Part shown: piece after piece, positions 1,950 to 51,871 of the stretch
Position numbering within the stretch: position 1 is the first letter of the stretch
How the letters are laid out: each line of letters opens with the position of its first letter
Source: Rhodospirillales bacterium
GTDB taxonomy: Bacteria; Pseudomonadota; Alphaproteobacteria; Rhodospirillales; JANQFP01
DNA: 64,000 bases
NCBI GenBank assembly: GCA_028277795.1
Contig: JANQFP010000252.1
Span: forward strand, 22,490 to 86,489
Direction: 5' to 3'
Made by a program: the position numbers and the translations under genes
The notes under the pieces: generated by a model
What the model saw: only the letters and a program-made list of their open reading frames with translations
Database searches by the model: none
What the model was told of the DNA's origin: nothing

Positions 1950-4298
1950 TTACTTGCTGGTCGCCACGTAGACGCCGTCCCAGGGCGTGGACGGCGGGTC
2001 GATCTTGTATTCGGCGATGCGTTCGGCGCAGACGTCGTAGAAGCCGGACAGGTTGAAGTCGTTGACCAGGCCCCGACACGCCTCCAGGCTCTTCATGGCG
2101 CCGTCCCAGTCCATCGCCCGGTAGGCGGCCAGCATCTCCTCGTGGGCGCTCTTCAGGGCCTTGAAGGCGTTGCCCTGGGCCACCTGCTCGTCGCCGACCA
2201 CGGTGTAGATACGCACCGCCTCGGTCTTGCCCTTCACCTTGATCAGGTCGAGCTCCAAGGCGGCCAGGTCCGTGCACTGCACATAGGTGTTCTCGCCGAC
2301 GACCAGGTCCACCGCGTAGGTCTTGCACTGGCCCTCGAGGCGCGAGGCCAGGTTCACGTTGTCACCCAGCACCGAGTAGTCGAAGCGCTGGTCCGACCCC
2401 ATGTTGCCGACCACCACGTCGCCCGAGTTGACGCCGATGCCGATCTTCAGGGGGATGTGTTTGCGGCCTTCCGCCTCGGCCTCGGCCTCGATGCGCTGGT
2501 TGAGGGGCTCCATCTCGGCGTTCATGACCAACGCCGAGATGCAGGCGTGGCGGGCATGATTCTCGTCATCCAGGGGCGCATTCCAGAAGGCCATGATGCA
2601 GTCGCCCATGTACTTGTCCACGGTGCCGTGGCGGTCGAGGATGACCTTGGTCAGCGGCGTCAGAAGCTTGTTGATGAGCCGGGTCAGGCCTTCGGCGTCG
2701 AACTGCTCGGAGATGGTGGTGAAGCCGCGCACGTCGCAGAACAGCATGGTCATGTTGCGGGTCTCGCCGCCCAGCTTGAGCTGGTCCGGCTCCTCGGCCA
2801 GCTTCTCCACCATGGCCGGCGCCAGGTAGTGGCCGAAGGCCGTGCGCACCTGGCGTTTCGCCGCCTCTTCCTTGGCGTAGTTCATGTAGGTAAGGAAGGT
2901 GTAGAGCAGCAGGATGCACAGGATGGCGTAGACGGCGTCGAACATGATGCGCTGCTCGGCGAACAGGTACCACGAAGTGGCCCCGGCGCCGCCCGCCGAC
3001 AGGAAGAACAGGAGCATGGTCCACTTGGCCCCGATGCGCGGCACCAGCCAGATCATCAAAAGGCCGCCGACCATGAGGAAGGTCAGTTCGGCGGCGTCGA
3101 TGAAGTTGGGCCGCGCCAGGTAGGCGCCGGTGACCGCGGCCTCGATGAGCTGGGCATGGACCTCGACCCCGGGGATGACCCGGTCCACCGGCGTGGCCCG
3201 GATATCCAGCAGCCCGACGGCGGAGGTGCCGAGGATGGTCAGCTTGCCCTTGATCTTGGCCGGGTCCGCGGTGCCGGCCAGGACGTCGCGGGCGGGCACG
3301 TACTTCTCCTTGTCGGACTTGGAGAAATAGGGCCACACACGGCCGTTGCGGTCGGTGGGGATCTTGAGGCCGCGGGCGATGCCGATGGCGTTGACCCCGG
3401 CCGCATTGGTCTCCACCAGGATGTTGGAGCGCCCGGTGGCCACCCGCAGCATCTCCACGCTCAAGGACGGATAGAGGTCTTCGTTGAAGACGAACAGGGA
3501 CGGCACCCGGCGCACGATGCCGTCGGGCTCGGGCACCAGGGAGAAGATGCCGTGGCCGGTGGCCTCCTTCTCGAACACCCGGACGTTGCGCACCAGGGCC
3601 TGGAAGGTGGGCAGGTACCGTTGCGGCTTGGGCCCCTTGAGGGCCACCGTGCGCTTGACCGGCGGCTCGCTCTGGGATTCCAGGGCCTCCCAGTAGCCGG
3701 CCTGGCCCAGCACCACGCGGCTGCCCTTGACCACCTTGGCGAAGAACTCGTCGTTGCTGGGCAGGCTCCTCAGCTTCTCCTTGGTCTCGTCGTCGAGGCC
3801 GTAGACGGACTCCGCGATGTCTTCCGGATTCATCCGGTCGGGTTCGGGAAACACGACGTCGAAGGCCACCAGCACGGCGCCCATCTGCATCAGGTTCTGC
3901 ACCATCTGGCCGACGATGTTGCGCGGCCATGGCCATTGCCCGACCTCGGCCAGGCTTTCCTCGTCCAGGTCGATGATGGTGACCGGCCGGTGGGTGACCT
4001 CGCGCGGCTTGACCTTCTGATAGACGTCGAAGGTCTTCACCCGCAACAGCTCGACCGGATAGGGGTCGGTGACGTAGAGGACCATGAACATGATCAGGAG
4101 CAGCAGGCCGAGAACCCGGTCCAGGCTGAAGGCGCCGCGCCACCAGGCCTTGCGGCTGGGCCGCTTGCCGCCACCCTTGCCGCCCCGGCGGAAACGGCCG
4201 AACAGGCCGGCCGACGGGGACGGCTTTTCCGGCTCGGAGGCCGGGCTCGCCTCGGCGGTCCGCAGGGCGGCCGCCGCGTCCTGACCGTCGCTGCTCAT
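1950..4298 (-). CDS. CHASE2 sensor domain-containing class III adenylate/guanylate cyclase
   Basis: N-terminal TM segment plus a large periplasmic CHASE2-like region, a block of TM helices, then a cyclase catalytic core (FCDVRGFTTISE ... KYMGDCIMAFWNAP ... GDNVNLASRLE). Start at ATG 4298, preceded by GGGAG. Confidence 0.85.
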   Translation of the reverse strand: MSSDGQDAAAALRTAEASPASEPEKPSPSAGLFGRFRRGGKGGGKRPSRKAWWRGAFSLDRVLGLLLLIMFMVLYVTDPYPVELLRVKTFDVYQKVKPREVTHRPVTIIDLDEESLAEVGQWPWPRNIVGQMVQNLMQMGAVLVAFDVVFPEPDRMNPEDIAESVYGLDDETKEKLRSLPSNDEFFAKVVKGSRVVLGQAGYWEALESQSEPPVKRTVALKGPKPQRYLPTFQALVRNVRVFEKEATGHGIFSLVPEPDGIVRRVPSLFVFNEDLYPSLSVEMLRVATGRSNILVETNAAGVNAIGIARGLKIPTDRNGRVWPYFSKSDKEKYVPARDVLAGTADPAKIKGKLTILGTSAVGLLDIRATPVDRVIPGVEVHAQLIEAAVTGAYLARPNFIDAAELTFLMVGGLLMIWLVPRIGAKWTMLLFFLSAGGAGATSWYLFAEQRIMFDAVYAILCILLLYTFLTYMNYAKEEAAKRQVRTAFGHYLAPAMVEKLAEEPDQLKLGGETRNMTMLFCDVRGFTTISEQFDAEGLTRLINKLLTPLTKVILDRHGTVDKYMGDCIMAFWNAPLDDENHARHACISALVMNAEMEPLNQRIEAEAEAEGRKHIPLKIGIGVNSGDVVVGNMGSDQRFDYSVLGDNVNLASRLEGQCKTYAVDLVVGENTYVQCTDLAALELDLIKVKGKTEAVRIYTVVGDEQVAQGNAFKALKSAHEEMLAAYRAMDWDGAMKSLEACRGLVNDFNLSGFYDVCAERIAEYKIDPPSTPWDGVYVATSK

Positions 4299-15286: not shown

Positions 15287-16303
15287 TCACTCCTTTTCCG
15301 CGGCTGCCGGCCGCCATGAGAACCCGGCACCCATGGCCAGGCCCGACAGGATCCACACCAGCTCGCGGAAACGGCGGACCACGGCCACCGCCACGCCCAG
15401 GGTCGGCGACCCGGTGATGGCGGTGCACACGATCAGGAAGCCCCCTTCCTGGGCGCCCAGGCTGATGGGGATGAAGAAGGTGCCGGCACGCACGAGCTGC
15501 GCCACCGCCTCGATCATCCAGGCCTCGGTGAACGACACCGGATGGCCCAGGAAGGCCATGGCGGCATAGACCTCGAGCACGCCCAGAAACCAGTTGATCA
15601 GGCCCAGGGTCGCCGCCACGGCGAAGCGCCCGCGGCGACGGGTGTAGAACGCCACCAGGCGCTCGTCCACATCGTGGATCAGGTGCAGGACCTCGTCGAG
15701 GCGGCGGGCGATGCGCCAGCGGCTGAGGCGGCTTCCGGTGGCCGAGGAGATCTTGAACCGCTGCACCAGGAAGAACAGCCCGATGCCGACCACCAGGGCC
15801 GTCAGGCCGGCCCCGGCCACCGACTTCAGGGACGCCGGCATGGCCGGCGAGGCGATGAGGAAGGCGAAGCCGCCGCCCAGGAAGACGATGAGAGCCAGCA
15901 GGTTGATGGTCTTGGCGAGGATCAGCGACGCCGTGCCCTCCCGGTAGCCGACGCCGTAATGGCGCTTGAGCAGCACCGCCTTGACCGGCTCGCCGCCCAT
16001 GCCGCCGGCGGGGATGACGGCGTTGAAGGCCTCGCCCACCATGCGCACCTTCCACAGGCGGTACAGCCACCGGCCGTCCACCGGCAGCGAGCCGACGGTC
16101 AGCAGCCACGACAGGGAATCGAACACGAAGGCCAGCAGGTAGAGCCCCAGGACCACCAGGATGCCCCACCCCACCTGGCCGACCCGCGCCGCCACCTGGG
16201 CCAGATCCACGTCGTGCAGGACCAGCGCGAGCAGCCCCAGGCCGAGGAGCAGGTAGAGGCCCTTCAGCCAGCGCACGGCGCGCCGCTTCCGCTCACCGGT
16301 CAC
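15287..16303 (-). CDS. hpnL: HpnL-like integral membrane protein (UPF0104 / lysyl-PG-synthase TM-region family)
   Basis: ~8 TM helices and a flippase-like family pattern. GTG start overlaps the hpnN stop by 11 nt. Confidence 0.7.
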   Translation of the reverse strand: MTGERKRRAVRWLKGLYLLLGLGLLALVLHDVDLAQVAARVGQVGWGILVVLGLYLLAFVFDSLSWLLTVGSLPVDGRWLYRLWKVRMVGEAFNAVIPAGGMGGEPVKAVLLKRHYGVGYREGTASLILAKTINLLALIVFLGGGFAFLIASPAMPASLKSVAGAGLTALVVGIGLFFLVQRFKISSATGSRLSRWRIARRLDEVLHLIHDVDERLVAFYTRRRGRFAVAATLGLINWFLGVLEVYAAMAFLGHPVSFTEAWMIEAVAQLVRAGTFFIPISLGAQEGGFLIVCTAITGSPTLGVAVAVVRRFRELVWILSGLAMGAGFSWRPAAAEKE

Positions 16304-18893
16304 CGGCCGGCACCCGCGGCCACAGCACCATCAACGCCGGCAGCACGGTCAGGGTGCAGGCCAGGGTGAGACCGATGGCCGCTGTCAGCAGCACGCCCAT
16401 GCTCGACGTGCCCGGGTGGCTGGACAGGGCCATGCTGCCGAAGGAGCCGATGGTGGTCAGCGCGCTCAGCACCACGGCCCGCGGCGTGCTGGTCCTCAGC
16501 ACCCGCCCGGTGTCGCCCTCGCCGCGCTCGCGGGCCACCAGGTGGATGCCGCTGGCCACGCCCAGGCCGAACAGCAGGGGCAGGACGATGACGTTGGCGA
16601 AGTTGAACGGCAGGCCCACCAGCACCGAGACGGCCACCGTCAACAGGGCCGCCAGGCCCAAGGGCGCGAACACCAGCAGCACGTCCCGGGGGCGGCGCAT
16701 CAACGCCGCCAGCAGCACCGCGATCAGGGCCAGGGCCAGGGCCGCGGCCTGGACGAACGCCCGCACCACGGCCCGGCCCGCCTCCAGGATGATCACCGGC
16801 GATCCGGTGGCCGCCGGCGCCTGCGTGCGCACCGCCTCGACGAACCGGCGCAGGGCGTCGGGATCGCGCAGGTCGTCGCGGGGAAACACCTGGACGCGGA
16901 CCCGGCCGTCGGTGGCCACGTGCCGCTCGCGCAGGCCCGCCGGCAGGTCATCCACGGTGACCGGCCCGGCCTCCAGGGCCTCCACGAGCGCGTCCAGGCG
17001 CCCCGGCAGGCCCGCCAGCAGCCCCGTCTCCAGGTCCCGCAGCACTTCGTCGGTCGGCGCCGCCGGCAGCGCGTCGGCGAGGCGACGGGCCGCCGCCATG
17101 GCCCCCTGCCCCGCCGCGAGCCGGACGAGCCGGTCGCGGAGGCGGTCAAGGGCGGCCCGGCGCGCCGCCATGTCGGGCGGCTCCTTGGGCGGGGCGGCGA
17201 GGGCCGGCGCCAGGTACAGGGCCATGGTCCCGATGATGTCCAGCTTGCCGTCCTGGTTGGCGGGCACGTAGTCGCCGATGGTGCGCACCCCGTCCACCGG
17301 GCCCAGATCCTCCAGGCGCCGCGCCATGTCCTCGGCCGCGGCCATGTCCCCGGCCAGCACGGTGATGGTGTAGGGACTGGTCTCCGGGTCGGCCATCAGG
17401 TCGAACAGGGTGGAGACCGATTCGGTCTCCGGGTCCTTCAGGTTCAGGGGATCGAAATCGAAGCGCGCCTGCGGCACCGTTACGGCGGCGGCGGCGGCCA
17501 CCGCCAGGGCCCCCCAGGCGATGGGGACGGCCCGCGCCCCGATCACCTGTCGGGCCCCGCGCCAGGCCGGCTCCCGGTGCCGGTGCGCCGACGGCCGCAG
17601 GGGCATCAGGGTGAGCATGGCCGGCAGCACGGTGGTGTTGGTGATCAGGGCGATGACCATGCCGGTGCCGGCGATCAGCCCGAGCTCGGCCAGACCCTTG
17701 TAGTCGGTGGGCAGGAACGCGAAGAAGCCGATGGCCGCGGCCACGGCGCACAGGGTCAGCGCCCCGCCCGAGCCCTTGGCGGCGGCGGCCAGGCCCTTCC
17801 GGTGGTCGGCTCCGCGGTCCACCGCCTCCTTGTAGCGCAGTCCGAAATGGATGCCGAAATCGACGCTGAGGCCGATGAACAGGACGGCGAAGGCGACGGA
17901 GATCAGGTTCAGGCTGTCCAGGGCGGCGACGGCGAACCCCGCCGTCCATACCAGGCCCGCCAACAGGGTCGCCACGATGGCCAGGGCCAGGCGCGGCGAC
18001 CCCAGCCCGAACAGCAGCAGGGTCACGACGACCGTGAGCGACAGGACCGCCGCCAGGCCCAGGCCGTCGCGGACGCTCAGCAGCTCCTCCTCGGCCAGGG
18101 CGGCCGAGCCGGTCAGGCGCACGCGGACGCCGGCGTCCTCGTCGAGACCCAGCTCGGCCACCAGGCCGCGCAGGGCGGCGATGGCTTCGGCCGCAGGCTG
18201 CAGGGAGCCGAAGTCCAGCACCGGCTGGATCAGGATCAGGCGGCGGCCGTCGTCGCCGCCGGTCATCAGTTGGCGCCACGACAGGCGGGCGAACCGGCCG
18301 TCGGCTCGCGCCTCGGCCACCTCGGCCATCGCAGTCAGGACGGGAGCAACATCGATGGGCGGATCCTCATCCGCAACCAGGATCTCGTCGATCGCAAGGG
18401 TCAGCATGTCGGCCAGGCCGCGCAACGTGGGGTCGCGCCGGAGCGCGCCGAGGAACGGTTGGGCCTCGGCCAGGCGGTCGGCCAGCGCCTCCAGGGCGTC
18501 GGTATCCATGTAGAGGAGCCCGTGGCGGCGGAAGAAGGGCTCGCCGGCCGGATCATAGACGTCGCCGAACAGGGCCGGGCGCTCCCTGAGCCGCGCTGCC
18601 AGGAGCCGCGCGGCATCGTCGGCCAGGTCCCCGGTGGCCCCGTCGATGACCACCAGGATGTTGTCCGAGAACTGGGGAAACGCCGCCGACAGGGCGCGGG
18701 AGTTCTGACGGAACGGCAGCTCCGCCGACAACATGTCCTCGGTGTCGGTGTTGATGGTCACGGCGTCGACCACGTAGGCGCCGATGGCGACGGTGGCCGT
18801 TACCGCGGCCAGCACAACAGCGGCGGCGCCACGCCGGACCAGGTCGACCCAGCGGACGACCCAGCGGCGGAACCTGGCGGCGGCTTCGGTCAC
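16293..18893 (-). CDS. hpnN: hopanoid-associated RND/MMPL transporter HpnN
   Basis: 866 aa with duplicated 6-TM plus periplasmic-loop RND architecture. Located in the hpn cluster next to hpnL/hpnM-like genes. Confidence 0.85.
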   Translation of the reverse strand: MTEAAARFRRWVVRWVDLVRRGAAAVVLAAVTATVAIGAYVVDAVTINTDTEDMLSAELPFRQNSRALSAAFPQFSDNILVVIDGATGDLADDAARLLAARLRERPALFGDVYDPAGEPFFRRHGLLYMDTDALEALADRLAEAQPFLGALRRDPTLRGLADMLTLAIDEILVADEDPPIDVAPVLTAMAEVAEARADGRFARLSWRQLMTGGDDGRRLILIQPVLDFGSLQPAAEAIAALRGLVAELGLDEDAGVRVRLTGSAALAEEELLSVRDGLGLAAVLSLTVVVTLLLFGLGSPRLALAIVATLLAGLVWTAGFAVAALDSLNLISVAFAVLFIGLSVDFGIHFGLRYKEAVDRGADHRKGLAAAAKGSGGALTLCAVAAAIGFFAFLPTDYKGLAELGLIAGTGMVIALITNTTVLPAMLTLMPLRPSAHRHREPAWRGARQVIGARAVPIAWGALAVAAAAAVTVPQARFDFDPLNLKDPETESVSTLFDLMADPETSPYTITVLAGDMAAAEDMARRLEDLGPVDGVRTIGDYVPANQDGKLDIIGTMALYLAPALAAPPKEPPDMAARRAALDRLRDRLVRLAAGQGAMAAARRLADALPAAPTDEVLRDLETGLLAGLPGRLDALVEALEAGPVTVDDLPAGLRERHVATDGRVRVQVFPRDDLRDPDALRRFVEAVRTQAPAATGSPVIILEAGRAVVRAFVQAAALALALIAVLLAALMRRPRDVLLVFAPLGLAALLTVAVSVLVGLPFNFANVIVLPLLFGLGVASGIHLVARERGEGDTGRVLRTSTPRAVVLSALTTIGSFGSMALSSHPGTSSMGVLLTAAIGLTLACTLTVLPALMVLWPRVPAGDR

Positions 18894-19111
18894 GGGGTCA
18901 ACAGTCCTCTTGTGCGGCGCTTATATCGCTGGCGATCGGGAACACACAACTTCGGCGCACGACCCTTTTCAAATCGAGACCGCACCAACAACCCGGCCGC
19001 GTTCTGCGTCGTGCCGCCGAGCCAACCAGATCACTCTAACGGTTCCGCTTCCATTGATGCCAAAGCTGACGTAATCTGAAATCAGCATGAGCCGGAATAT
19101 ATAGAATTAAA

Positions 19112-19816
19112 ATGGAATTTAGCGTCACCAGGCTGGATATAGTTTTCGAAACTGTATTCATTAGGCCGGCTTTCTCCGTCGCACAAAAAACGACAAAAGT
19201 ACTGGAATCTATTTATGACGCATTGAGCCCGAGATTTTCCGTTCAACTCTCTGACCTGCAGGTCCAACCTGGTTTATCCTTTGCTGACGTCTTCGTTCGT
19301 GTCAATATTTTTGGAGGCAACGGGCAGTTGGAACTCAGAGTTGATAAGTTCACTGGTCGATTCCAAAACCTAAAAACGAGCGACGACGTCAAATCAGTAA
19401 AAGAAAGCCTGGACTTGAGCGAAAAGGCCATCGCCGAAGTTATTCCAGACATGCGGGAGAAAACCACGGCTATTCGCACAGCTTCCTGGTTGAACTGTGG
19501 ATTGGATGGCGCCGCGGCGGCGAATTTACGAGAGAAATGGGTCGACGCGTCTGCCAACGTCCCCTACCGCCAATTGGGGGCCGCGAGCTTGAATTGCCCG
19601 ATTGAGGCCAGTTTCGACAACGAAGAAGAACGATGGGCGGTATCTTTCCGTATTGAGCCTTCGGCTTCGAACTCGGCCGACCTATATTTCGCATGCAATG
19701 GCTTGTACGCGCCGGGTGGCAAGTTTAGCAACCTTGATGAGAGGGCCGAACACATGGAAATCCAGTATCTAGGACTGCTGAGACACTTCGGGTTCGAGCC
19801 ACCGGAAACGCGATAG
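19112..19816 (+). CDS. hypothetical protein (no recognisable domain), first gene of a low-G+C islet
   Basis: 234-aa ORF with an AT-richer composition than the flanks. It ends 22 nt upstream of the Xre-like antitoxin gene. Confidence 0.6.
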   Translation: MEFSVTRLDIVFETVFIRPAFSVAQKTTKVLESIYDALSPRFSVQLSDLQVQPGLSFADVFVRVNIFGGNGQLELRVDKFTGRFQNLKTSDDVKSVKESLDLSEKAIAEVIPDMREKTTAIRTASWLNCGLDGAAAANLREKWVDASANVPYRQLGAASLNCPIEASFDNEEERWAVSFRIEPSASNSADLYFACNGLYAPGGKFSNLDERAEHMEIQYLGLLRHFGFEPPETR

Positions 19817-19838
19817 CCTGACAACCGAGAAATCAGCT

Positions 19839-20462
19839 ATGCCCACAAATGGACAGGTCCAGCGGGAAGAGGAGTGGCTTGCGGCCAGCACGCACTTCGT
19901 TCCCTTTGAGCAGAGTAGTAGCGCCGTGGAAGGGTCTCCGGCACGCAGCTCAAAGGGTCTACAGCTCGGAATCGGCCCCGATTGGGCAAGGGGTCCGGGA
20001 AATGTAGATCGAGCCACCACAGCGGTTCGTGACTCCTTAAGGGAGACCGAGAGAAGCGAAGCTCGAAATCGATTTGTCGCGTTACCTTTGCCAGAGGAGG
20101 GAAGTTTTTCGGGCCGAGTGACGGCCCCCGTCCGGTTCTTCGCTAGAGTTCTAGAAGTTTGGGGACTGGATCGCAGCGCCGCGGCAAAGCTGCTCGGGTA
20201 CGAAGATGATCGTCTGGCACATGAACTCTTGTCCGGCGCCGCAAGCCTGCGAACCCGGGACGCCAAAGACAGGATACGCCACGTTTTCGTAATTAGGGAG
20301 GCCCTGCACCAGTTGTTCCGGGACGAACGTGTTGAAAGGGAGTGGCTTCGGGAACCGCGCCCCGAACTGAACAACAACACTCCCATCCAGCTCCTTCTGG
20401 AAGGATCGATGGAAAACATGTTGCTTGTTCGGCAACTCGTGGAGTGGATGGTGGGCCGGTAA
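19839..20462 (+). CDS. Xre/MbcA/ParS-family antitoxin (DUF2384 toxin-binding domain)
   Basis: C-terminal WLREPRPELNNNTPIQLLLEGSMENMLLVRQLVEWMVGR fits the DUF2384 pattern. Immediately precedes a RES-domain gene. Confidence 0.75.
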   Translation: MPTNGQVQREEEWLAASTHFVPFEQSSSAVEGSPARSSKGLQLGIGPDWARGPGNVDRATTAVRDSLRETERSEARNRFVALPLPEEGSFSGRVTAPVRFFARVLEVWGLDRSAAAKLLGYEDDRLAHELLSGAASLRTRDAKDRIRHVFVIREALHQLFRDERVEREWLREPRPELNNNTPIQLLLEGSMENMLLVRQLVEWMVGR

Positions 20463-20466
20463 CATC

Positions 20467-21111
20467 GTGCTTGAGCAAGTCGTCCCGCTGGAAGTGTCTG
20501 AAACTGTTTTCAGGTTTGCGAACCGACCTAAGCACGCCAAGTTTCTCGAAGACATGGACTTCGATCCCGATGACCAGGAGGAAATCCTCTCCTTCGTCGA
20601 GTCGATCCACGCCAAGTCCGACCTCCAAGACCTCTTGGACGGCCCGTTCGCGCGCAAGCCCGTGCTGGAGACAGCCCGAGCCCGCCAATCCCGCTTCTCG
20701 GATGGTCGTCTCCGTATCTTCTATAGCTCGCTTGAGCTCGAGACCGCGAAGGCGGAGACGTTCCACTGGTACGCAAAAGCGGCGCTCGCAAGTGGATCAG
20801 CGGCAAGGACCGTCTATTATGAAAGGTTCCATTGCCGATTTCAGGGAACAGCATGGGACCTGCGCCTGCAGGCCTCCGAATGGTCCTTTCTCGCCGATCC
20901 CGACGAGAGTGCCTATCCGCACTGTCAGCACGTCGCTGCGGAGGCCGTCGCCGCCGAACTGGACGGCTTGCTGACACCATCGGCGCGAAATACGAACGGA
21001 ACCAATGCACCGGTTTTCAGCCGGACGGCGCTCTCGGAACCGCAAGTCCTCGGTTACACGGCCTTCTCATCGGACCCCGACAGCGGGCGGATAAGGGCGG
21101 TGGACAGGTGA
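20467..21111 (+). CDS. RES-domain toxin (NAD+-targeting MbcT/ParT-like family)
   Basis: R...Y/E...S pattern (SRFSDGRLRIFYSSLELETAKAE ... LTPSARNTNGTNAPVFS). GTG start 4 nt after the antitoxin stop (the track ORF starts at TTG 20425). Confidence 0.75.
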   Translation: MLEQVVPLEVSETVFRFANRPKHAKFLEDMDFDPDDQEEILSFVESIHAKSDLQDLLDGPFARKPVLETARARQSRFSDGRLRIFYSSLELETAKAETFHWYAKAALASGSAARTVYYERFHCRFQGTAWDLRLQASEWSFLADPDESAYPHCQHVAAEAVAAELDGLLTPSARNTNGTNAPVFSRTALSEPQVLGYTAFSSDPDSGRIRAVDR

Positions 21112-21169
21112 CGCCAGAGTCCACTTCACCTCAACAGTGACGCTCACCGTCGAGAGTAGGCTTCGGACC

Positions 21170-21784
21170 ATGAAGGCGCCGCCCTGGGATCAACGCATCG
21201 CCCGGACCCTGGTTCGGCCCCTCGCCGGCACGCCGGTGACGCCCAACCATGTCACCGTGCTCACCATCGTCCTGGCCCTGACCGGCGCCGGATTGCTGGC
21301 GGTCGGCGATCCCGTTCTCGCCAACTGGGGCGCCGGCCTGTTCGTGCTCGCCCGCTTCATGGACCACCTGGACGGCGAGCTGGCCCGGCAGACCGGACGC
21401 ACCTCGCGGGTCGGCTACTACCTGGATTACGGGGCCGGAGGACTGAGCTACGCCGCCCTGTTCCTCTGCATCGGCATCGGCTTCCGCGACGGCGCGCTGG
21501 GCCCGTGGGCCATCGCCCTGGGGGTGGCCGGCGCCGCCTCCGCCGTCGTCTCGCTGTTCCTGAATCTCGGCATCGACCGAGCCCAGAAGCGGAGGCAGGG
21601 CACCGAAGGCGACGCCGTCGGCTACCCCGGGTTCGCCGGCTTCGAGCTGGAGGACGGGATCTATCTGCTGGCGCCGGTGACCTGGCTCGGCTGGCTGGAG
21701 CCCTTCTTCGTCGCCGCCGCCATCGGGGCCGTGGTCTACACCTTGTGGAGCGTGGGGCGTCTGGCCCTGGTGCGCCGCCGGTAG
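21170..21784 (+). CDS. CDP-alcohol phosphatidyltransferase-family membrane protein (motif variant lacking the last Asp)
   Basis: DHLDGELARQTGRTSRVGYYLDYGAG matches DGxxAR-x8-G-x3-D, but the final conserved D is G. Multi-TM. Paralogue of the convergent gene. Start could be GTG 21137. Confidence 0.75.
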   Translation: MKAPPWDQRIARTLVRPLAGTPVTPNHVTVLTIVLALTGAGLLAVGDPVLANWGAGLFVLARFMDHLDGELARQTGRTSRVGYYLDYGAGGLSYAALFLCIGIGFRDGALGPWAIALGVAGAASAVVSLFLNLGIDRAQKRRQGTEGDAVGYPGFAGFELEDGIYLLAPVTWLGWLEPFFVAAAIGAVVYTLWSVGRLALVRRR

Positions 21785-22362
21785 AGGATCGCCGCGAACA
21801 GCAGCGCGAAGGCCGGCGCGCCGATGGTCGCCGCCCACAGGAGCGGCAGGGACCAGCCCAGCCACACCGCCACCGGCACCGCCAGCACGGCGTCGTCCGG
21901 GTCGAATCCGGCGAAGCTGCCCAGCTCGGCGGCCCGCTCGCCGCCCAGGGCCTCCATGCGGACCGTCATCCACAGCACCGCGGCAATGGCGCCGCCGGCC
22001 AGGACGCCCATGGGGATGGCCCACATCCCCAGTTCGCTGCTTCCGAGGCCGATCCCGAGGCCGACGAAGGCCAAGGCGTTGGACAACGCGTCGGCCCACA
22101 GGTCGTAGACGTGGCCCCGGGCCGACGTGCGGCCGGTGGCGCGGGCCAGTTCGCCGTCCGCCCGGTCGAGCACCATCGACACCACGAACACGGCGCCGCC
22201 CACGTGGATCCACGGGGCCGCGCCGGTGGCCAGAAAGGCCGCCGCCGCCAGCCCGCCGGCCAGCCGCAGGGTGGTGAGCTGGTTGGGGGTCACCGGCGTC
22301 GCCGCCAGGGGGCGGACGATGGCGACGCGGGCCAAGCGGTGAATCCAGGTGTTGTGGCTCAC
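21736..22362 (-). CDS. CDP-alcohol phosphatidyltransferase-family membrane protein (complete motif)
   Basis: DRADGELARATGRTSARGHVYDLWAD gives the full DGxxAR-x8-G-x3-D-x3-D motif. GTG start at 22362 overlaps the ppd stop (GTGA). Only the C-terminal part of track ORF 21736-22854 is considered coding. Confidence 0.8.
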   Translation of the reverse strand: MSHNTWIHRLARVAIVRPLAATPVTPNQLTTLRLAGGLAAAAFLATGAAPWIHVGGAVFVVSMVLDRADGELARATGRTSARGHVYDLWADALSNALAFVGLGIGLGSSELGMWAIPMGVLAGGAIAAVLWMTVRMEALGGERAAELGSFAGFDPDDAVLAVPVAVWLGWSLPLLWAATIGAPAFALLFAAILYRRRTRARRPTLHKV

Positions 22363-23507
22363 GGCGCCGCCCCGTCGGCGAGGAAGGCCCGGAAGCGCCG
22401 CGCCACCTCGGACGGATGCACCGTCGGCCGGCCGAGCCCGGACATGGAGCCGGGCGCGATGCGCATGTGCACCAGGGCCGGCCCGGCGGCGCCGAGGGCG
22501 TCGGACACGGCCGACGAGAAGCCGTCCGCGGAATCGCAGACCGCCGCCCGGGAGTATCCGCAGGCGAGCGCGGCGCCGGCGAAGTCCACCGCCGCCGACA
22601 CGGTCGGCTGACCGCCGGTCGAATCGTAGGTGCCGTTGTCGAGCACCACGTGGAGGAGGTTCTTTGGCGCATAGGCGCCGATGGTGGCCAGGGTCCCCAT
22701 TTTCATCAGTGCCGCCCCGTCGCCGTCGACCACCACCACCGGGCGGTCCACCCCCAGCGCCACGCCCAGCCCCATGCCCGCCGCACAGCCCATGGAGCCC
22801 ACCTGATAGAGATGCTGCGGGCGGTCGGCAAGGGTGAACAGCTCGCGGCCGCATTTGCCGGTGGTGGCGATCACCGCCGCCGCCTCGGGCAGAGCCTCCA
22901 GCAGGCGCTCCAGCACCGCCATGCGGGCCGGCGGGGCCCCACCCTCCTCCAGGTCCCGGCGAACCCCGGTCGGCCGCGGCCCGGGCGCCAGGGCGTCCAG
23001 CGCGGTCTCGGCCACGTCGCCCTTCTCCATGATGAAGGCGAAGGGCAGGCCGGTGTCCTGCATGCGTTCCGTGGCCTCGGACAGGGCACCGGCCACGTCT
23101 TCGGCGGCCTTGGGGAACGGCCGGTGGGGAACCCGGATGGTGTCCAGCAGGGCCGGGGTGATCTGCCCCATGAGCTCGTGCTGGGGCTCGTCCTCGAGGC
23201 CGGGGCCGCCCCGCCAGGTGACCACCAACAGCGTCGGGATTCGGAACGGAAAATTTAAAGAAGTTAGTGGGTTAACGGCGTTTCCTAAACCGGAATTCTG
23301 ACACATGACGACGCTGTCGCGGCCCGTCAGCCAAGCGCCGGCGGCGATGGCCACCGCCTCGCCCTCGCTGGCCGCGGCCACGTAGGTCAGGGACCGGTCG
23401 CCGAGGGTGCCGTTGATGATGGGGGTAAGGAACGAGCACGGCACGCCGGTGAAGAACTGCAGGCCGGCGGCGCGCGCCGGCCCCAGAAAGGCGTCGGCGT
23501 CGATCAC
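22359..23507 (-). CDS. aepY: phosphonopyruvate decarboxylase
   Basis: ThDP enzyme: N-terminal [11 protein letters not shown] ... [13 protein letters not shown] and ThDP motif [34 protein letters not shown] 23507 overlaps the upstream stop (GTGA). It is the C-terminal 382 aa of track ORF 22359-24950. Confidence 0.85.
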
Positions 23508-25225
23508 AGGAACTGGCCCGCGTGCACCAGGTCGGCGGCGTCGTCCACGTCCAGCCACTGGCCGGCCACATACAGCACCCGCACCGTCGTCTCGCCGCCC
23601 GCGGCCAGACGGCTGAACAGGTCGAGCAGGCTGGCCTTGGGCAGGGTCCCGTCGGCGGCCATGGCCTCGATGACGCCGCGCACGGCCGCGCAGCCGCGGT
23701 CGCTGAGGCGGGCCAGGCCCACCCATTCGCCGTGGGCGCGGTCCGGGGGCACGTCGTTGCCCATGCGCACCAGGGTGACCGGGTCGTCGTCCAAATAGCT
23801 GCCGGAGAAGGGCCGCGAGCACACCGCCAGGTCGCGCACCGGGTCGGATCCGCTGACCGCGCGTTGGCGCCACAACGCATCCACGGCCACCACGACGTCG
23901 CCGTCGGCCGCCATCAGCTGGTCCAGGTAGTGGTGGCGGAACAGGATGTCGCCGTAGGCGATGACGCAATCGCCCTGCAGGTGGTCGGCGGCACAGGCCA
24001 GGCTCGCCGCCTCGCCGGTGACCGCGTAGAGGTCGTTGTCCACGGTGCGGATGGACGGCAGGTTGATCATCTCCTTGCGGTAGCCGCGGACGACGGTGAC
24101 CTCGCCCACGCCCCCCTCGCGCAGGGTGGCGATGAGGCGGCGCAGCAGCGGCTCGCCGCGCACGTCGATCATGCACTTGGGGCGGTCGGCGGTAAGCGGC
24201 CCCAGGGCGGCGCCGCGGGACGCCGCCAGCAGCACGGCGCGCCGCTCCGGCGGCCCCGAGGACGGCAGGTAGCGGCGCTCGGCCTCGGCCAGCTCGTCGT
24301 TGCCGGCCAGCTCGAAGACCTCGCCGACGCTGGCCACCTGGCCCTCCACGCCGACCAGGCTCTCCTCGCGCTGGATGCGGCGCGACACCTCGCGCATGGC
24401 AGTGATGGCGGCGCGCAGGTTGTGATTGGCCCAGATGGCCACCGAGAACCCGGCCTGGCGGAACACCGAGGTGGGCGTCGTGTGGTACTTGGTGGGCACG
24501 ATGACCACCGGCGCCCGGTCCCCCCACGCACCCTTGAAGGCCAGCACCTCGTCGGCGGTGGGCATCTTGGAGTGGATCAGCAGGGCGTCGGCGCCGGCGG
24601 CGTGGTAGGCCTCGGCCCGGCGCAGGGCCTCGTCCAGCCCCCAGCCCGAGATCAGCGCCTCGATGCGGGCCACAAGGCAGAAGTCGGGGTCCGTCTGGCT
24701 GTCCTTGCCGGCCTTGATCTTGCCGCAGAACTCGTCGATGTCGGCCAGGGGCTGGCCCTCGCCGATGAACGAGTTGGTCTTGGGGAACAGCTTGTCCTCG
24801 ATGCAGATGCCGCCGATGCCCCGCTGGCACAGTTTGGCCACGGCCCGGCGCACGTTGTTGAAGTTGCCCCAGCCGGTGTCCCCGTCCACCAGGATGGGGA
24901 TGGAGGTGGCGTCGGCCATGAACTCCAGGACCTCCAGCACCTGGGTCCACGACGCCTCGTTGTTGTCGCGCACCCCCAGGGCGGTGGCGATGGACAGCCC
25001 CGATGCCCAGATGCCCTTGAACCCCGCCTCCTCGACGATCTTGGCCGACATGCCGTCGTGGGCCTCCATCAGGAACTCGAGGCGCGGAGACCGCAACAGG
25101 GCGGCGAGGCGGGCGGCCTTGGTGATTTCGGCGGGCTCGGCGGCGCCGAGGGGACGGAGGGGTGTGGTCATGGCGGTGCGGGCAGGACGGGGTTGAACGC
25201 GGACCGGCAGGTCGTTTAGTTTCAC
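23504..25225 (-). CDS. aepX: phosphoenolpyruvate phosphomutase fused to a C-terminal nucleotidyltransferase (cytidylyltransferase-like) domain
   Basis: Ppm-diagnostic EDKxxxxxNS motif ([10 protein letters not shown]) within an isocitrate-lyase/PEP-mutase fold. C-terminal ~270 aa has an NTP-transferase pattern ([25 protein letters not shown]). The start may instead be ATG 25171. Confidence 0.85.
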
Positions 25226-26928: not shown

Positions 26929-27231
26929 ATGGAGAACCTGGACGGCACTCAACCGCCAAAGGAGTTTGGCCCCCAGGCATCCCTGCTGAAGCGGTGGGTC
27001 CTGGGCGGCATCTGCATCGTGCTGGTTCTCGCGTTCCTGTGGTTCGTGGCCACTCAGCTCGGCGACGGCCAAGGCTGCGAGGGTTGCATGTCCTTCCGCG
27101 GCGGCGAGTCCGACGGGCCACCCATCTGGATGTTCGCCCTCGGCACCCTCCTTGTCGTCGCCGTTGCCTTGGCGGCGCCGGTCCTCGCAAGACTGGGCAT
27201 GAAGTCTGGCGCCGAGTCCGACGACACCTGA
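26929..27231 (+). CDS. hypothetical small membrane protein (weak call)
   Basis: ~100 aa with two hydrophobic helices. Internal ATG of track ORF 26791-27231. No family recognised. Confidence 0.3.
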   Translation: MENLDGTQPPKEFGPQASLLKRWVLGGICIVLVLAFLWFVATQLGDGQGCEGCMSFRGGESDGPPIWMFALGTLLVVAVALAAPVLARLGMKSGAESDDT

Positions 27232-27308
27232 GCCGGCGTCTGGACGGCAGCCGAGGCCGTGGTCGAAGCCTCGCGAAGTTCGGATGCCAACGTTGACGGA
27301 TTGACAGA

Positions 27309-27893
27309 ATGAGTCCGCGACCAATCGTATCGTTGATTTGGCAAGGCCCTATCGGTGTCGGCAATCTTCCTGGGCTGGAGGGCCAGAAGGATTTGGTCGG
27401 ACCGCATATCTACGTCATATGCCAACATTACGCGAATCACACGACCGTCTATGTGGGCCAATCCAAGACTTTCTTGAATAGGCTTTGGCAGCATTATCTA
27501 AATTTCTTGGGGCTTCATTATCTTATTCGGGACGAAGACGGCGAACATGTCTATGATCCACGTAATGACGACATGTTTGAAAAGCTCAATAATCTGAAAG
27601 AGTTTTTCAGTTTTATTGTCAATGACGTGAGCAGGACGAGGATATTTTACGCAAAGTGTGCGCCAAAGGCCTTGGATCCAGTTGAAAGTACATTGATTGA
27701 CCACGCCTTTACAAATTTTCCGTACGAATCAAACGACAAGAAATATCGGTGTGACAATACTCGTCGTCAAAACTATGGAGACGATGACACACCAATAACC
27801 ATTGATATGAAATACGAGAGATTGGAGGATAATGGTAAAGTCGTGCTCAAAGAAATATTCGGCGAGCAAGTAAAGTGCAAATTTGACGCTTAG
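27309..27893 (+). CDS. GIY-YIG nuclease-domain protein (orphan)
   Basis: HIYVICQHYANHTTVYVGQSKTFLNRLWQH fits GIY-x10-YxG ... R ... H, and the downstream VESTLID supplies the conserved Glu. Lies in a visibly AT-rich ~650-bp islet. Confidence 0.6.
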   Translation: MSPRPIVSLIWQGPIGVGNLPGLEGQKDLVGPHIYVICQHYANHTTVYVGQSKTFLNRLWQHYLNFLGLHYLIRDEDGEHVYDPRNDDMFEKLNNLKEFFSFIVNDVSRTRIFYAKCAPKALDPVESTLIDHAFTNFPYESNDKKYRCDNTRRQNYGDDDTPITIDMKYERLEDNGKVVLKEIFGEQVKCKFDA

Positions 27894-27953
27894 TATTTTC
27901 CAATCCGTCGGGGTTTGCCCCACGAATTTCGAAAGGTCGACCGCACGAGCTGA

Positions 27954-28769
27954 TCAGCCGTGGCCGACCCGGCCGGTGCCGCGCATCGGGGCTGGGTGAG
28001 CCGCCGCGTCGTGGGTGTCGTGCGCCGGACCGACGATGCGCGGGAGAATCTTCTTCTCGGCGCGCAGCAGGTCGGCCGGGAAATCGATCTCGATCCACGG
28101 GATGCCGGTGATGTCCTCGACGCCGAAGGTGCCCGGCGGCTCGCTGACCAGCACGTCGCGCATGGCCACCTCGTAGGTCACGCCCATCCGCGCCTCGTCC
28201 ACCAGGGCCTGGGCGGCATCGGCCATGCGGGCCGCGATCTCCGGGGTCATGGTGAGGAAGCCGGGCCACTCCCCGATCATGTCGAAGGTCCCCTCCACCT
28301 TCTTGCCGAAGTCCACCGGCAGACCGTCGCGCAGGCACAGCTTGACCGGCTCGTCACCCGGCTCGATGGCTTGGTCGAGCAGGAAGCAGTTGCCATGGGT
28401 CGACGTCACCAGCCGCTCGATGAGCCGCGGGTCGTAGAGCACGTCGGCGTCCATGAACAGCACCGGCGCCCCCTCCCGCAGCACCTCGCGGGCGGTCCAG
28501 AACGACAGGATTGGACCGCCGCGGAAACGCGGATTGTAGAGGCTGCGCACGTAGTCACGGGCGCCGATGGCGCGGACCTCGGCCAGGATCTCGTCGTGGC
28601 GGTAGCCGAGCACCATCACCAGCTCGTCCACCCCCACCGACTGCAGCACCCGGATGTGGCGCTCCAGCAGGGTGGCGCCGGCGAAGCGCAGCAACGACTT
28701 GGGCGGCTGCCGGTAGTCGTCGCCGTACAGGCGCGACCCCACGCCCGCCGCCAGCATCAACGCTTTCAT
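27954..28769 (-). CDS. nucleotidyltransferase (LicC / sugar- or phospho-alcohol cytidylyltransferase-like)
   Basis: N-terminal MKALMLAAGVGSRL nucleotide-binding motif (LAAGxGsR) and NTP_transferase fold pattern. Confidence 0.75.
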   Translation of the reverse strand: MKALMLAAGVGSRLYGDDYRQPPKSLLRFAGATLLERHIRVLQSVGVDELVMVLGYRHDEILAEVRAIGARDYVRSLYNPRFRGGPILSFWTAREVLREGAPVLFMDADVLYDPRLIERLVTSTHGNCFLLDQAIEPGDEPVKLCLRDGLPVDFGKKVEGTFDMIGEWPGFLTMTPEIAARMADAAQALVDEARMGVTYEVAMRDVLVSEPPGTFGVEDITGIPWIEIDFPADLLRAEKKILPRIVGPAHDTHDAAAHPAPMRGTGRVGHG

Positions 28770-35781: not shown

Positions 35782-36591
35782 TCAAGTGCCCCCTGCGGGC
35801 GACCGGCTGGCCTGGGCGGCTGGTATACCTGTGACGCGGGTCAACGGGATTCCAATCCCTACAACTGGACAGGGACTGCCGACGCCGCGGTCAAGACGCT
35901 GGTTCAACTTCGCCCAATGAGTTGTCGCCGCACCGAACTTGTCCGCGAAAAAGCAAGCGGCCCACGCCTTCGGGAATAGACATTTGTTGCGTTCCATATA
36001 TCGCTCAACGGCTTTCCTTTGCCGGGCAGTCGGTGCGACGCCGAAACGCGCCAACCTGTCGAAGGAGTTTAGGCCCTCCTCAGCCGCAAACTGGGATAGA
36101 CATCCTTCCAGACCTTCCTGAAACGATGCGCCTCGCGTTACGATGACGCCGATACTGATGGCACCATCAGCGTGAAGCCGGTTGAAGTTCTCCAAGTCCC
36201 TATCGAAGAACGGATCCTTGTTGTTCCATTCGATTTCCAGAGCGATTTTTCCCGCTTCTAACGTCTTTACGTGATCAACTTCGTGCGACTGCGAAAACGT
36301 CGTTTGTTCGTTGATCTTCTTTTCAACGTTGAACGTGGCTTTGCGCCAGCCGCAGTCTTGGAGAGAGTGACGAAGTCGTTGCGTAATCTGTGCTTCGCCC
36401 CCACCACCGCCAATCAACTCGGCGACAGGCACCGATACGACGCCGATCGTCCGCTCCAGTTCGGCGACCGCATCGGGGAAATCCTGATCCAGGATCGCAT
36501 TTGCGTGATAGGTAAAGCGGACGTCGAAACCAGCCTTGCGAAGACCTTCGAATACGGGAGGTTTTTTCCTTCGCTTGCCCGCTGGGCTCAA
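35782..36591 (-). CDS. type II restriction endonuclease, BglII/BamHI-like fold
   Basis: IALEIEWNNKDPFFDRDLENF and SIGVIVTRG resemble the catalytic-core pattern of BglII/BstYI-type enzymes. Start overlaps the methyltransferase stop (ATGA). Lower G+C than the flanks. Confidence 0.6.
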   Translation of the reverse strand: MSPAGKRRKKPPVFEGLRKAGFDVRFTYHANAILDQDFPDAVAELERTIGVVSVPVAELIGGGGGEAQITQRLRHSLQDCGWRKATFNVEKKINEQTTFSQSHEVDHVKTLEAGKIALEIEWNNKDPFFDRDLENFNRLHADGAISIGVIVTRGASFQEGLEGCLSQFAAEEGLNSFDRLARFGVAPTARQRKAVERYMERNKCLFPKAWAACFFADKFGAATTHWAKLNQRLDRGVGSPCPVVGIGIPLTRVTGIPAAQASRSPAGGT

Positions 36592-50706: not shown

Positions 50707-51111
50707 TACGGGAAGATCGAGTCTGTGCCCTGATGGCGCGGCCCGCCAGACACACGGCGACTGCCCGCTTGAAGCGGTCCCCCGCGCTACGACTTGGCAC
50801 GAGATCTCCCGTCCGCCACGAGCTCCGCCGCCTTCAGGCCGCCTTACAGGCCTCTACCCTTCTGCTCCCGCAATGGATGGTTTGGCGAGACGGGCGGTGA
50901 GAAGCTGCAAGGCCGACAGCTTGCACCGTGCCACCTTCTCATCCATAGTTGTAAATAGCCCTGCTCGTGGTCGGGCGCTGCGCGCTCAACATCGTTGCCG
51001 CGCCCGGGAGTCGCGCGCGCCGCCGTCGATGCCAACTGTCAGGTGATCGCCGTCTCAGGACAATCATGATGATCTTTCCGCACGGGCCCTAGTAGGGGGG
51101 GAGACCGAGCC

Positions 51112-51837: not shown

Positions 51838-51871
51838 GGCCGGAGCCCGCAAAATAAGGCCCACGCCCGCA

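Follow-up and report, generated by a model that had tools for sequence, protein, structure and literature searches.

A candidate tripartite RES–Xre toxin-antitoxin cassette of the NatR–NatT type in a low-G+C islet of a Rhodospirillales genome

The low-G+C islet and its three genes

The window (the whole 64,000-nt stretch of Rhodospirillales DNA that was analyzed) holds at 18950..21120 a low-G+C islet of about 2.1 kb, which contains an entire three-gene cassette. The G+C content of the islet is 45–62% (0.455–0.62) versus 70–77% (0.70–0.77) in its flanks: in 400-nt windows, it dropped from 0.72 at 18400–18799 to 0.455 at 19000–19399, stayed at 0.51–0.62 up to about 21100, and was back at 0.72 by 21200, and in 1-kb bins the islet is the G+C minimum of the window (0.522). 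These profiles bear out the AT-rich stretch of about 2 kb described in the first-pass annotation, which had also correctly read three co-oriented open reading frames with gaps of 22 and 4 nt, the start of the last gene being taken from its homologs. Upstream and divergent from the cassette is a gene for an MMPL-family transporter (16293–18893, minus strand), and downstream is one for a CDP-alcohol phosphatidyltransferase (21137–21784, plus strand), both assigned by Pfam. We found no tRNA gene marking an insertion site at the islet, and flanking direct or inverted repeats that might mark one yielded nothing convincing.

The AT-rich intergenic region ahead of the cassette (18894..19111, plus strand) presumably contains the operon promoter. 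Reading off the sequence places TATATAGAAT at 19098–19107, 4 nt before the ATG of the first gene, gene A, which has no Shine-Dalgarno sequence ahead of it. A consensus scan of 18894..19111 gave no plus-strand sigma-70 site, and promoter and terminator consensus-like sites were not enriched relative to shuffled sequence (1 versus 0.7 and 4 versus 3.2, respectively). Among homologous loci, a -10-like box, TAGAAT, occurs near the start of A in two (L006 and L040), and a TTGACT...TAAGTT pair upstream of A is conserved among those of Nitrospirales; no palindromic operator upstream of A was conserved across the loci compared.

The last gene, C (20467..21111, plus strand), encodes a 214-aa RES toxin of a NatT-like subfamily. 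Its mechanically called reading frame begins at TTG 20425, and GTG 20467 was chosen since homologs begin with MLE. The RES domain claimed at first reading was confirmed by a match to PF08808 (E 1e-16), and the family profile of C matched Pseudomonas aeruginosa NatT (8QNL/8QNQ) over residues 30–224 (E 2.5e-7), a span that takes in the segment preceding the RES core. Single-sequence phmmer with C gave no match in the PDB; only with the RES profile and a search by structure could C and the antitoxin be linked to PDB entries. All family-invariant residues are present in C, namely R76 (in SRFSDG), D79, Y86, T93, E97, S172, G178, P182, and F184, with R76, Y86, E97, and S172 invariant across 23 relatives. 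The RES pattern proposed earlier stands for its arginine, tyrosine, and glutamate but not for its serine, as the one after PVF is not conserved across the family and the invariant residue is S172 in TPSA. C is predicted from its sequence to consume NAD+ and possibly NADP+. Since ParT ADP-ribosylates Prs instead of degrading NAD+, the exact chemistry of C is not readable from homology alone.

Gene B (plus strand, from ATG 19839 to TAA 20462) encodes a 207-aa antitoxin. Its core (aa 91–207, 20109..20462, plus strand) is NatR/MbcA-like, with an Xre-like HTH and a C-terminal toxin-binding domain; the Xre/MbcA/ParS C-terminal domain recognized by eye was recovered by PF09722 (Xre_MbcA_ParS_C, aa 155–201, E 3e-7) and by the NCBIfam Xre_ParS antitoxin model NF049845 (aa 97–187, below its curated cut-off). 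In Foldseek, the core aligned with the whole 113-aa chain of NatR (8QNL_B; TM 0.82, rmsd 2.3 Å), with MbcA, VPA0769, and P. putida Xre as the next matches, while single-sequence phmmer against the PDB gave only a nonsignificant chance match to bacterioferritin (E 0.52). The N-terminal extension of about 90 aa remarked upon earlier is real, with the conserved core beginning at aa 91. This tail (aa 1–90, 19839..20108, plus strand) is hydrophilic (GRAVY -0.66), predicted to be disordered, fast-evolving, and devoid of an HTH_3 domain, and AlphaFold2 pLDDT was 43–56 over it and 94–98 over the core. A highly variable tail of 70–170 aa is found in all 18 A-linked loci, and no tail motif is common to every clade of A-linked B proteins. 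Because its reading frame remains open across these length differences and it is conserved at the level of clades, we conclude that the tail is translated.

Gene A (19112..19816, plus strand, ATG 19112 to TAG 19816) supplies the third part of the cassette and codes for a 234-aa acidic protein (pI 4.95). As the first-pass annotation had noted, it carries no recognizable motif: the protein matched nothing in Pfam, NCBIfam, PADLOC, or PHROGs, 90 members of its family had no match in Pfam or NCBIfam, RHH and HTH families included, and in PADLOC these members gave three chance-level matches only (E about 0.006). The family profile returned only chance matches among PDB sequences (E>1). A word-indexed homology search with the single A sequence found A itself only, and one with a 90-sequence profile found 3 proteins only, so exhaustive phmmer was needed to expose the family, which comprises 285 clusters (at 50% identity) at E<=1e-3. 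Its members are nearly all 225–250 aa long (about 235 aa is typical), match over their full length, and are acidic, with medians of 5.25 for pI and -7 for net charge. The homologs are all from MAGs or metagenomes.

The AlphaFold2 model of A (pLDDT 95, pTM 0.91) consists of two tandem S1-H1-S2-S3-S4-S5-H2 repeats, the order of the TBP repeat, and this confident model points to a fold of a TBP-like/helix-grip, pseudo-dimeric class. Foldseek recurrently returned TBPs from the PDB and BFVD with probabilities of 0.99–1.0, and Bet v 1/PYL proteins, which are helix-grip/TBP-like relatives, were also among the matches; the best viral match had a TM of 0.54–0.61. The comparison with TBPs fits in secondary-structure order, but TM was only about 0.3, rmsd was 10–13 Å, and hhalign detected no sequence similarity between the two halves of A (probability 1.7%), on which ground an internal duplication at the sequence level was rejected. 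Conserved charged residues (R7, D9, E13, R63, E74, R76, and K/R79) alternate with hydrophobics on the strands in the first half of the protein, a pattern suggestive of a conserved, exposed face of the sheet and of a resemblance to a binding protein; N170, E173, W175, S184, and H214 are further conserved, beside polar sheet residues. The putatively exposed sheet faces, as judged from residue alternation and not from coordinates, have charges of +2 and 0, and with the family's negative net charge this leaves A without a basic or hydrophobic concave sheet of the kind that binds nucleic acids, though a TBP-like fold could formally accommodate DNA binding. No catalytic motif or ligand-binding family was recognized in A. 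A SecB-like chaperone was considered and rejected, as A and 89 relatives have no SecB match in Pfam and the fold differs, and A showed no similarity to any other known chaperone.

Linkage of gene A to RES–Xre pairs

RES–Xre modules (MbcTA, ParST, and NatRT) are regarded as strictly two-gene, whereas in the window a conserved third gene precedes B-C. The first-pass annotation had proposed that this gene may be a third component and had pointed to the neighborhoods of its homologs, which we found to be linked to RES–Xre pairs. Four A homologs picked blind to their neighbors (P0041, P0141, P0111, and P0143, at 40%, 23%, 23%, and 22% identity, respectively) have B and a RES gene directly downstream, as does every A homolog with enough flanking sequence. 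Because A-family alignments contain no stretch conserved enough for a locus search, the antitoxin B core was used instead: A lies directly upstream of B-C in 15 of the 26 genome loci found via B and in five of seven informative metagenome loci. The A-carrying genome loci span at least seven phylum- or class-level lineages, with Nitrospirota, Binatia, Nitrospinota, Gemmatimonadota, and Alpha-, Beta-, and Gammaproteobacteria among the bearers. A RES gene was detected beside B in 22/26 genome loci, truncated or split in three of these 22, and in all of them it follows B tightly and co-oriented; the stop of A overlaps the start of B by 4 nt (ATGA/GTGA) in 10 loci. No A homolog was found away from B-C in the loci examined. 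A is not a chance neighbor; it is a member of an unnamed family that travels with RES–Xre pairs across many phyla. This conserved linkage, the A-B overlap, and the lack of any terminator-like site within the 22-nt A-B gap of the window support its standing as a third component. We found no three-gene or tripartite RES system in the literature, and the three-part version is apparently undescribed.

On one contig, residues 1–190 of A are joined in frame to the tail and core of B in a single protein (P0188), with an intact RES gene downstream. A frameshift artifact was rejected, since the missing C terminus of A is absent from the other frames; the protein is an in-frame deletion fusion, possibly a copy in decay, in which ~45 residues are missing from the end of A. 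As it comes from a single 2.3-kb metagenomic contig, we give it little weight.

Rates of evolution differed among the parts of the cassette. Leaving aside in each case one near-identical pair, whose ratios are unstable at a dS of 0.01–0.06, dN/dS was 0.20–0.35 for A (pair left aside: dS 0.06, ratio 0.61), the same range as for toxin C, 0.08–0.18 for the B core (dS 0.012, ratio 0.31), and 0.43–0.70 for the B tail (dS 0.035, a noisy ratio of 2.8). The selection acting on A is of the ordinary purifying kind and not diversifying. In 17 of 18 other loci, G+C content is lower in the cassette than in the flanking DNA, a contrast indicating that it has probably been transferred horizontally as a unit. 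Among Nitrospirales, it is syntenic and apparently vertically kept, adjoining a gene for the glycine-cleavage T-protein. The neighbors of the cassette in 18 loci have housekeeping functions, and neither defense nor mobile-element genes are enriched among them; no cassette copies were found on phage, plasmid, or IMG/VR viral contigs, and A, B, and C matched none of the PADLOC-DB 2.0 defense models. The earlier remark that the locus is possibly defense-related found no backing in these results.

The remaining 11 of the 26 B-C genome loci lack A, and most of these still have the tail, which means that the tail is not strictly dependent on A. Genes found upstream in place of A belong to a family that we call A' or encode a UvrD-like helicase, a TPR protein, or transposases. 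The upstream 225-aa gene of one locus (L005) was considered as a distant A homolog and rejected (BLASTP E about 1, HMM E 6.8), and it defines the separate A' family. RES toxins of non-A loci share the same N-terminal region as A-linked ones. Related two-gene antitoxins have an HTH_3 domain in place of the disordered extension: HTH_3 is found in none of the 18 A-linked B proteins, A is absent from the three HTH_3-bearing loci with known context, and in a B-core tree HTH_3 marks one derived clade nested among A-linked lineages. A and HTH_3 are mutually exclusive. That HTH_3 replaces both A and the tail in this clade would suit a transcriptional role of A equally well, an observation that tells against a mechanism through the tail.

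Possible roles of gene A

We tentatively read the cassette, with somewhat less than even confidence, as an intact, horizontally acquired, tripartite variant of the NatR–NatT type of RES–Xre module, in which A is accessory and works via the antitoxin tail. By homology, C would consume NAD+ (possibly NADP+) and arrest growth, and the C-terminal 117 residues of B, a full NatR-like unit, would bind and block C and probably also bind the operator. A appears to be co-transcribed with B and, in many homologous loci, translationally coupled to it. All A-linked antitoxins have the tail, whereas canonical two-gene antitoxins lack it. We propose that A acts through this tail, our best guess being an accessory protein whose target is the N-terminal extension of B. 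A may bind the disordered tail and thereby set the stability or neutralizing ability of the antitoxin, and we infer that the toxin would be released when A is lost or titrated. The logic would be analogous to that of the TAC chaperone, though not the fold.

Alternatively, A may be the transcriptional regulator or co-regulator of the operon, a TBP-like DNA binder assisted by or tethered to the tail and equivalent to the fused HTH_3. This would suit its TBP repeat order and recurrent TBP matches, its position as the first gene, its absence from the HTH_3-bearing loci with known context, HTH_3 being a derived replacement, and the occurrence of bacterial TBP domains in nucleic-acid-binding proteins such as RNase HIII and DNA glycosylases (PMC3597702), but we consider it unlikely given an acidic family with sheet faces that are hardly basic, the poor superposition on TBPs, the lack of an HTH or RHH in A, the Xre-like HTH that the NatR-superimposable B core has of its own, and the lack of a conserved palindromic operator. 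We are more skeptical that A is the sensor or trigger of an abortive-infection defense, in which a phage protein or infection signal would leave the antitoxin released or unprotected and lead to NAD+ depletion. The lack of PADLOC matches beyond chance level, the housekeeping neighbors, the absence of copies from phages, plasmids, and viral contigs, the purifying selection on A, and the vertical history suggested for Nitrospirales all speak against such a role, even if NAD+ consumption by a RES enzyme would be a plausible effector and toxin-antitoxin systems have been implicated in phage defense (PMC9503650, PMC11535050). The fast evolution of the tail, the apparent mobility of the cassette, and the modular upstream partner (A, A', HTH_3, helicase, or TPR protein), which resembles sensor swapping, would nonetheless fit a defense system.

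An action of A on the toxin or its chemistry seems less probable still. A would then be a second inhibitor or an immunity protein, directed at the N-terminal part of C that resembles NatT, or else bind or process small molecules of the NAD/ADP-ribose type via a helix-grip pocket, in keeping with the Bet v 1/PYL matches, the conserved polar and other residues, and the similar dN/dS of A and C. Toxins of the subfamily have in common with NatT, for which E29D is a gain-of-function substitution (PMC11535050), a conserved 70-aa N-terminal region, yet toxins of non-A loci have this region too, A has no recognized catalytic motif or ligand-binding family, and neither the long tail of every A-linked antitoxin nor the coupling of A to B rather than to C would be explained. 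Finally, it is very unlikely that A is an unrelated passenger hitch-hiking with a two-gene pair: though canonical RES–Xre systems require two genes only and not all related B-C loci have A, distant phyla keep the order and adjacency of A-B-C even where A is as little as 22% identical, and the frequent A-B overlap, purifying selection on A, and lack of A homologs apart from B-C argue against it.

The accessory reading can be taken further, to a version that we regard as doubtful, in which A and the disordered tail form an input module gating a NatT-like NADase, a signal frees the toxin, and the B-C chassis swaps its input heads. A would hold or shield the tail until a phage protein, proteolytic cue, or metabolite broke the hold, and the alternative heads would be the A' family, the HTH_3 domain, and possibly the helicase or TPR protein. 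If true, these cassettes would be modular, signal-gated switches for NAD depletion, and they would represent the first RES system to have a sensor protein of its own, one from a new fold family.

NatRT drives antibiotic persistence in P. aeruginosa, and a widespread sub-lineage in which a third protein is obligate and the antitoxin tail disordered would offer a natural handle on the activation step of RES toxins. Because the A family is missing from Pfam, NCBIfam, and PADLOC, its members are annotated as hypothetical, and the operon passes for an ordinary pair. The family, with its ~285 clusters and a confidently modeled but unmatched fold, thus gains its first functional context, and the cassette would enlarge the short list of tripartite toxin-antitoxin systems.

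Comparison with known systems

The closest known system is the RES–Xre type II pair NatR–NatT of P. aeruginosa (PA1029–PA1030; 8QNL/8QNQ), in which NatR represses NatT, a toxin that depletes NAD/NADP (PMC11535050). The cassette resembles it in the profile match of the toxin, the superposition of the B core on the whole of NatR, the placement of the antitoxin gene directly ahead of that for the toxin, and the NAD/NADP depletion expected of C. NatRT differs in having only two genes and an antitoxin of 113–128 aa with no N-terminal tail, to which the cassette adds A and a disordered extension of 90 aa, and sequence identity between the two systems is low. Other solved pairs are MbcT–MbcA of M. 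tuberculosis (6FKG), P. putida Xre–RES (6GW6, 9R35), VPA0770–VPA0769 (8GUG), and ParT–ParS (6D0H); these share the antitoxin fold of B (Foldseek probability 1.0, TM 0.5–0.7 on the target) and the Pfam RES and Xre_MbcA_ParS_C domains, are all two-gene, and are all more distant from the cassette than NatRT.

Gene A itself shares its repeat order and recurrent Foldseek matches with the TBP-domain/helix-grip superfamily (PMC3597702), but the superposition is weak, A is acidic rather than basic, and it has no sequence relationship to TBP or to the TBP domains of RNase HIII or glycosylases. The order of extra gene, antitoxin, and toxin is also that of omega-epsilon-zeta, paaR2-paaA2-parE2, and hipBST (PMC6581861), whose first genes encode RHH or HTH DNA-binding proteins of the omega, PaaR2, and HipB types, whereas A is acidic and has neither motif. 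In TAC (HigB1-HigA1-SecB-like, Rv1955-57; PMC3581621, PMC9098466), the third gene comes last and the toxin is a ribonuclease, whereas here the extra gene leads the operon, a RES enzyme serves as the toxin, and A is not SecB-like. The TAC antitoxin carries a short, aggregation-prone chaperone-addiction segment at its C terminus; B instead ends with its conserved core, and its extension is N-terminal, long, and hydrophilic. Both are nevertheless tripartite type II arrangements that pair an unstructured antitoxin segment with a dedicated third protein, and in the logic that we propose, this third protein would likewise control the competence of the antitoxin.

Three co-oriented genes in a low-G+C islet

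In 400-nt windows, G+C content fell from ~0.72 to 0.455 at 19000-19399, remained at 0.51-0.62 until ~21100, and was again 0.72 by 21200; in 1-kb bins, the minimum of the 64-kb window (0.522) was bin 19001-20000. As a first-pass annotation had proposed, this islet holds three co-oriented ORFs: gene A (19112-19816, 234 aa), gene B (19839-20462, 207 aa), and gene C (20467-21111, 214 aa). A mechanical ORF call for C begins at TTG 20425, and we set the start at GTG 20467 by alignment to 22 homologues starting 'MLE'; with this start, the annotated gaps of 22 nt between A and B and 4 nt between B and C are borne out. Its domain calls also agreed with ours (an Xre/MbcA/ParS C-terminal domain in B and a RES domain in C), except that the RES serine it had placed after 'PVF' must be reassigned, the invariant serine being S172 in 'TPSA'.

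Promoter-like and terminator-like matches occurred at chance level only, and none parts A from B. A -10-like 'TAGAAT' box lies very near the A start codon, without a Shine-Dalgarno sequence, at 19098-19111 in the window and at ~4985-5000 in the homologous locus L006, and another lies near the A start at ~1290-1300 in locus L040. Such a box without a Shine-Dalgarno sequence hints that the transcript may be leaderless or nearly so. In the Nitrospirales copies, a TTGACT...TAAGTT pair is found instead, conserved ~60 nt upstream of A.

An MMPL-family transporter gene lies upstream of the islet, and directly downstream (21137-24950) Pfam matches indicated two CDP-alcohol phosphatidyltransferase genes and a TPP-dependent decarboxylase-like gene. 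These flanks may represent a lipid head-group (possibly phosphonolipid) cluster, with the cassette inserted in its divergent promoter region. We detected further low-G+C stretches in the window. The lowest-G+C patch (27201-28100, minimum 0.40) contains a plus-strand ORF of 194 aa without a Pfam match (27309-27893), which may be another acquired orphan gene. A second islet (35782-37250, ~0.51-0.56), on the minus strand, has a gene for a BglII-like restriction endonuclease (35782-36591; PF09195, E 2e-23) that overlaps one for an MT-A70-family DNA methyltransferase (36588-37250; PF05063, E 1e-32); these matches suggest a type II restriction-modification cassette. In a third stretch (50901-54000), the plus-strand ORF 51112-51837 encodes a LuxR-type regulator that includes an autoinducer-binding domain, and 52979-53941, on the same strand, encodes a PhyH-family dioxygenase.

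An unnamed protein family linked to NatR- and NatT-like partners

Gene A had no match in Pfam, NCBIfam, PADLOC, or PHROGs, and a word-indexed homology search recovered A alone. Exhaustive phmmer against 1.84 billion cluster representatives yielded 285 homologues at E<=1e-3 (171 at E<=1e-10), nearly all of 225-250 aa and aligning end to end, and the sole source name recovered for the family was 'hypothetical protein'. Ninety members lacked any credible Pfam, NCBIfam, or PADLOC match, and the family profile found nothing among PDB sequences. On this sequence evidence, A is a member of a real, unnamed protein family. An AlphaFold2 model from a 90-sequence alignment (pLDDT 95, pTM 0.91) predicted two tandem S1-H1-S2-S3-S4-S5-H2 units, though no sequence similarity was detectable between the two halves. 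Foldseek placed TATA-binding proteins highest (probability 0.99, with a TM of only ~0.3), followed by Bet v 1/PYL helix-grip and other proteins at lower scores; in a viral library the best match was an unnamed protein (TM 0.54-0.61), and giant-virus TBP-like proteins came next. We thus name the predicted fold TBP-like/helix-grip, without a close characterised relative. Family members are acidic, with a median pI of 5.25 and a median net charge of -7. In the strands of the N-terminal half, hydrophobic positions alternate with conserved charged ones, a pattern that points to a conserved sheet face, its exposure deduced from residue alternation rather than coordinates.

The partners of A are NatR/NatT-like. 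A profile of 23 subfamily RES proteins matched residues 30-224 of P. aeruginosa NatT (8QNL/8QNQ; E 2.5e-7). The core of B (aa 91-207) was modelled as helical (AlphaFold2, pLDDT 94-98) and fits the entire NatR chain (TM 0.82, rmsd 2.3 A), with MbcA, VPA0769, and P. putida Xre as the next structural matches. NatT lowers NAD and NADP, NatR is its repressor and antitoxin, and the system has two genes (PMC11535050). By homology, C would consume NAD(P)+, and the B core would neutralise C and repress the operon. The cassette looks intact because C in the window retains every family-invariant RES residue.

Genes A, B, and C form a conserved, coupled, co-transferred operon. In a small sample, four A homologues (40%, 23%, 23%, and 22% identity) picked without knowledge of context were all followed by an antitoxin and then a RES gene; a fifth contig ended too soon for its context to be read. 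Scanning one genome per species with the B core gave 27 loci, 26 with a recognisable antitoxin, and purpose-built HMMs for A, B core, and C found A immediately before B-C in 15 of these 26; among informative metagenome-contig loci, A was present in 5/7. Hosts were Nitrospirales, Binatia, Nitrospinaceae, Longimicrobiales, Pseudomonadales, other Gammaproteobacteria, a betaproteobacterium, and Hyphomicrobium, and every A-B-C homologue comes from an uncultured organism. In ten loci, the stop codon of A and the start codon of B overlap as ATGA or GTGA. Cassette G+C was below that of the flanks in 17/18 loci, which means that the cassette is transferred as a three-gene unit, and the Nitrospirales cassette is syntenic, adjoining a glycine-cleavage T-protein gene. 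On one metagenomic contig (L050, 397-1530), a single 377-aa ORF joins A residues 1-190 in frame to the antitoxin tail and core, and an intact RES gene follows with a 4-nt overlap; no other frame encodes the lost C-terminal end of A.

The antitoxin tail and possible substitutes for gene A

Residues 1-90 of B form an N-terminal tail modelled at low confidence (AlphaFold2, pLDDT 43-56). An N-terminal tail, hydrophilic and 70-170 aa long, was present in all 18 A-linked antitoxins, with little conservation between clades, and none of the 18 carried HTH_3, the domain that many relatives have at this position. Conversely, A was absent from all three HTH_3-type loci with known context. The tail, predicted to be disordered, is specific to antitoxins without HTH_3. 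Within two clades, Nei-Gojobori dN/dS was 0.43-0.70 for the tail, 0.08-0.18 for the B core, and 0.20-0.35 for both A and the RES toxin, ranges that omit one near-identical pair whose low dS (0.01-0.06) gave unstable ratios. Tails differ in length without any break in the reading frame, so the tail is translated but fast-evolving. Neighbour joining on the B core, without rate-variation correction or support values, grouped the HTH_3-type antitoxins in a single clade nested among A-linked lineages, with the B of the window as its sister. This topology suggests that the subfamily started out with three genes and that A plus tail later gave way to the HTH_3 fusion.

Other genes occupy the upstream position where A is absent. 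A second unnamed family, A' (L005, 4327-5004; L017, 2943-3599; L021, 3014-3574), lies directly upstream of tailed NatR-like antitoxins, encodes ~200-225 aa with a conserved 'FRRDAAxFLSL' motif, and in L005 and L017 shares 4 nt with the start of the antitoxin gene. It had no credible Pfam match and no similarity to A, and may be an alternative third component. In two Azotimanducaceae genomes, a UvrD-like superfamily-1 helicase gene lies just upstream on the antitoxin's strand (L027, 1599-3932; L029, 1259-3439); in L027 it overlaps the antitoxin gene start, and a RES gene was sought there and not detected. Transposase genes take this position in L014 and L031, and a gene for a membrane TPR protein does so in L028. 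Some copies of the module are in decay: the RES gene is truncated to 57 aa in L014 and split in L033 and L046, and the L021 antitoxin has shrunk to its core, with a 128-aa ORF (3574-3960) between A' and B and no RES gene.

Possible roles of A and comparison with known systems

The best-supported reading, plausible but short of firm, is that A is an accessory protein and uses the tail of the antitoxin to act on it. A would set the stability or competence of B via the tail, following the same logic as the chaperone of toxin-antitoxin-chaperone (TAC) systems, though A is not SecB-like. The fold of A, its gene position, and the mutual exclusion of A and HTH_3 would also suit a DNA-binding co-regulator, but A is acidic and its TM to TATA-binding proteins is low; we consider this role unlikely. 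Rather less likely still is a defence sensor: the modular upstream partners and fast-evolving tail are in keeping with one, yet we found no defence-island context and no PADLOC matches, and phage or plasmid copies were looked for without success. That A acts on the toxin, or on some small molecule, has a slightly slimmer chance again, and that A is a mere passenger gene seems very improbable.

The module resembles RES-Xre systems in all respects tested except their two-gene architecture; the founding comparative analysis described RES-COG5642 solely as a gene pair (PMC2701414), and full-text literature searches found no three-gene or tripartite RES system. It differs from TAC systems in lacking the defining SecB-like chaperone and the C-terminal addiction segment, the extension of B sitting at the opposite, N-terminal end. 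Regulator-first tripartite systems are defined by an RHH or HTH first gene, which A is not. We rate the cassette as a NatRT-like RES system of tripartite form, in which the accessory protein belongs to a new family; the cassette is conserved, lends itself to testing, and is relevant to the release of RES toxins.
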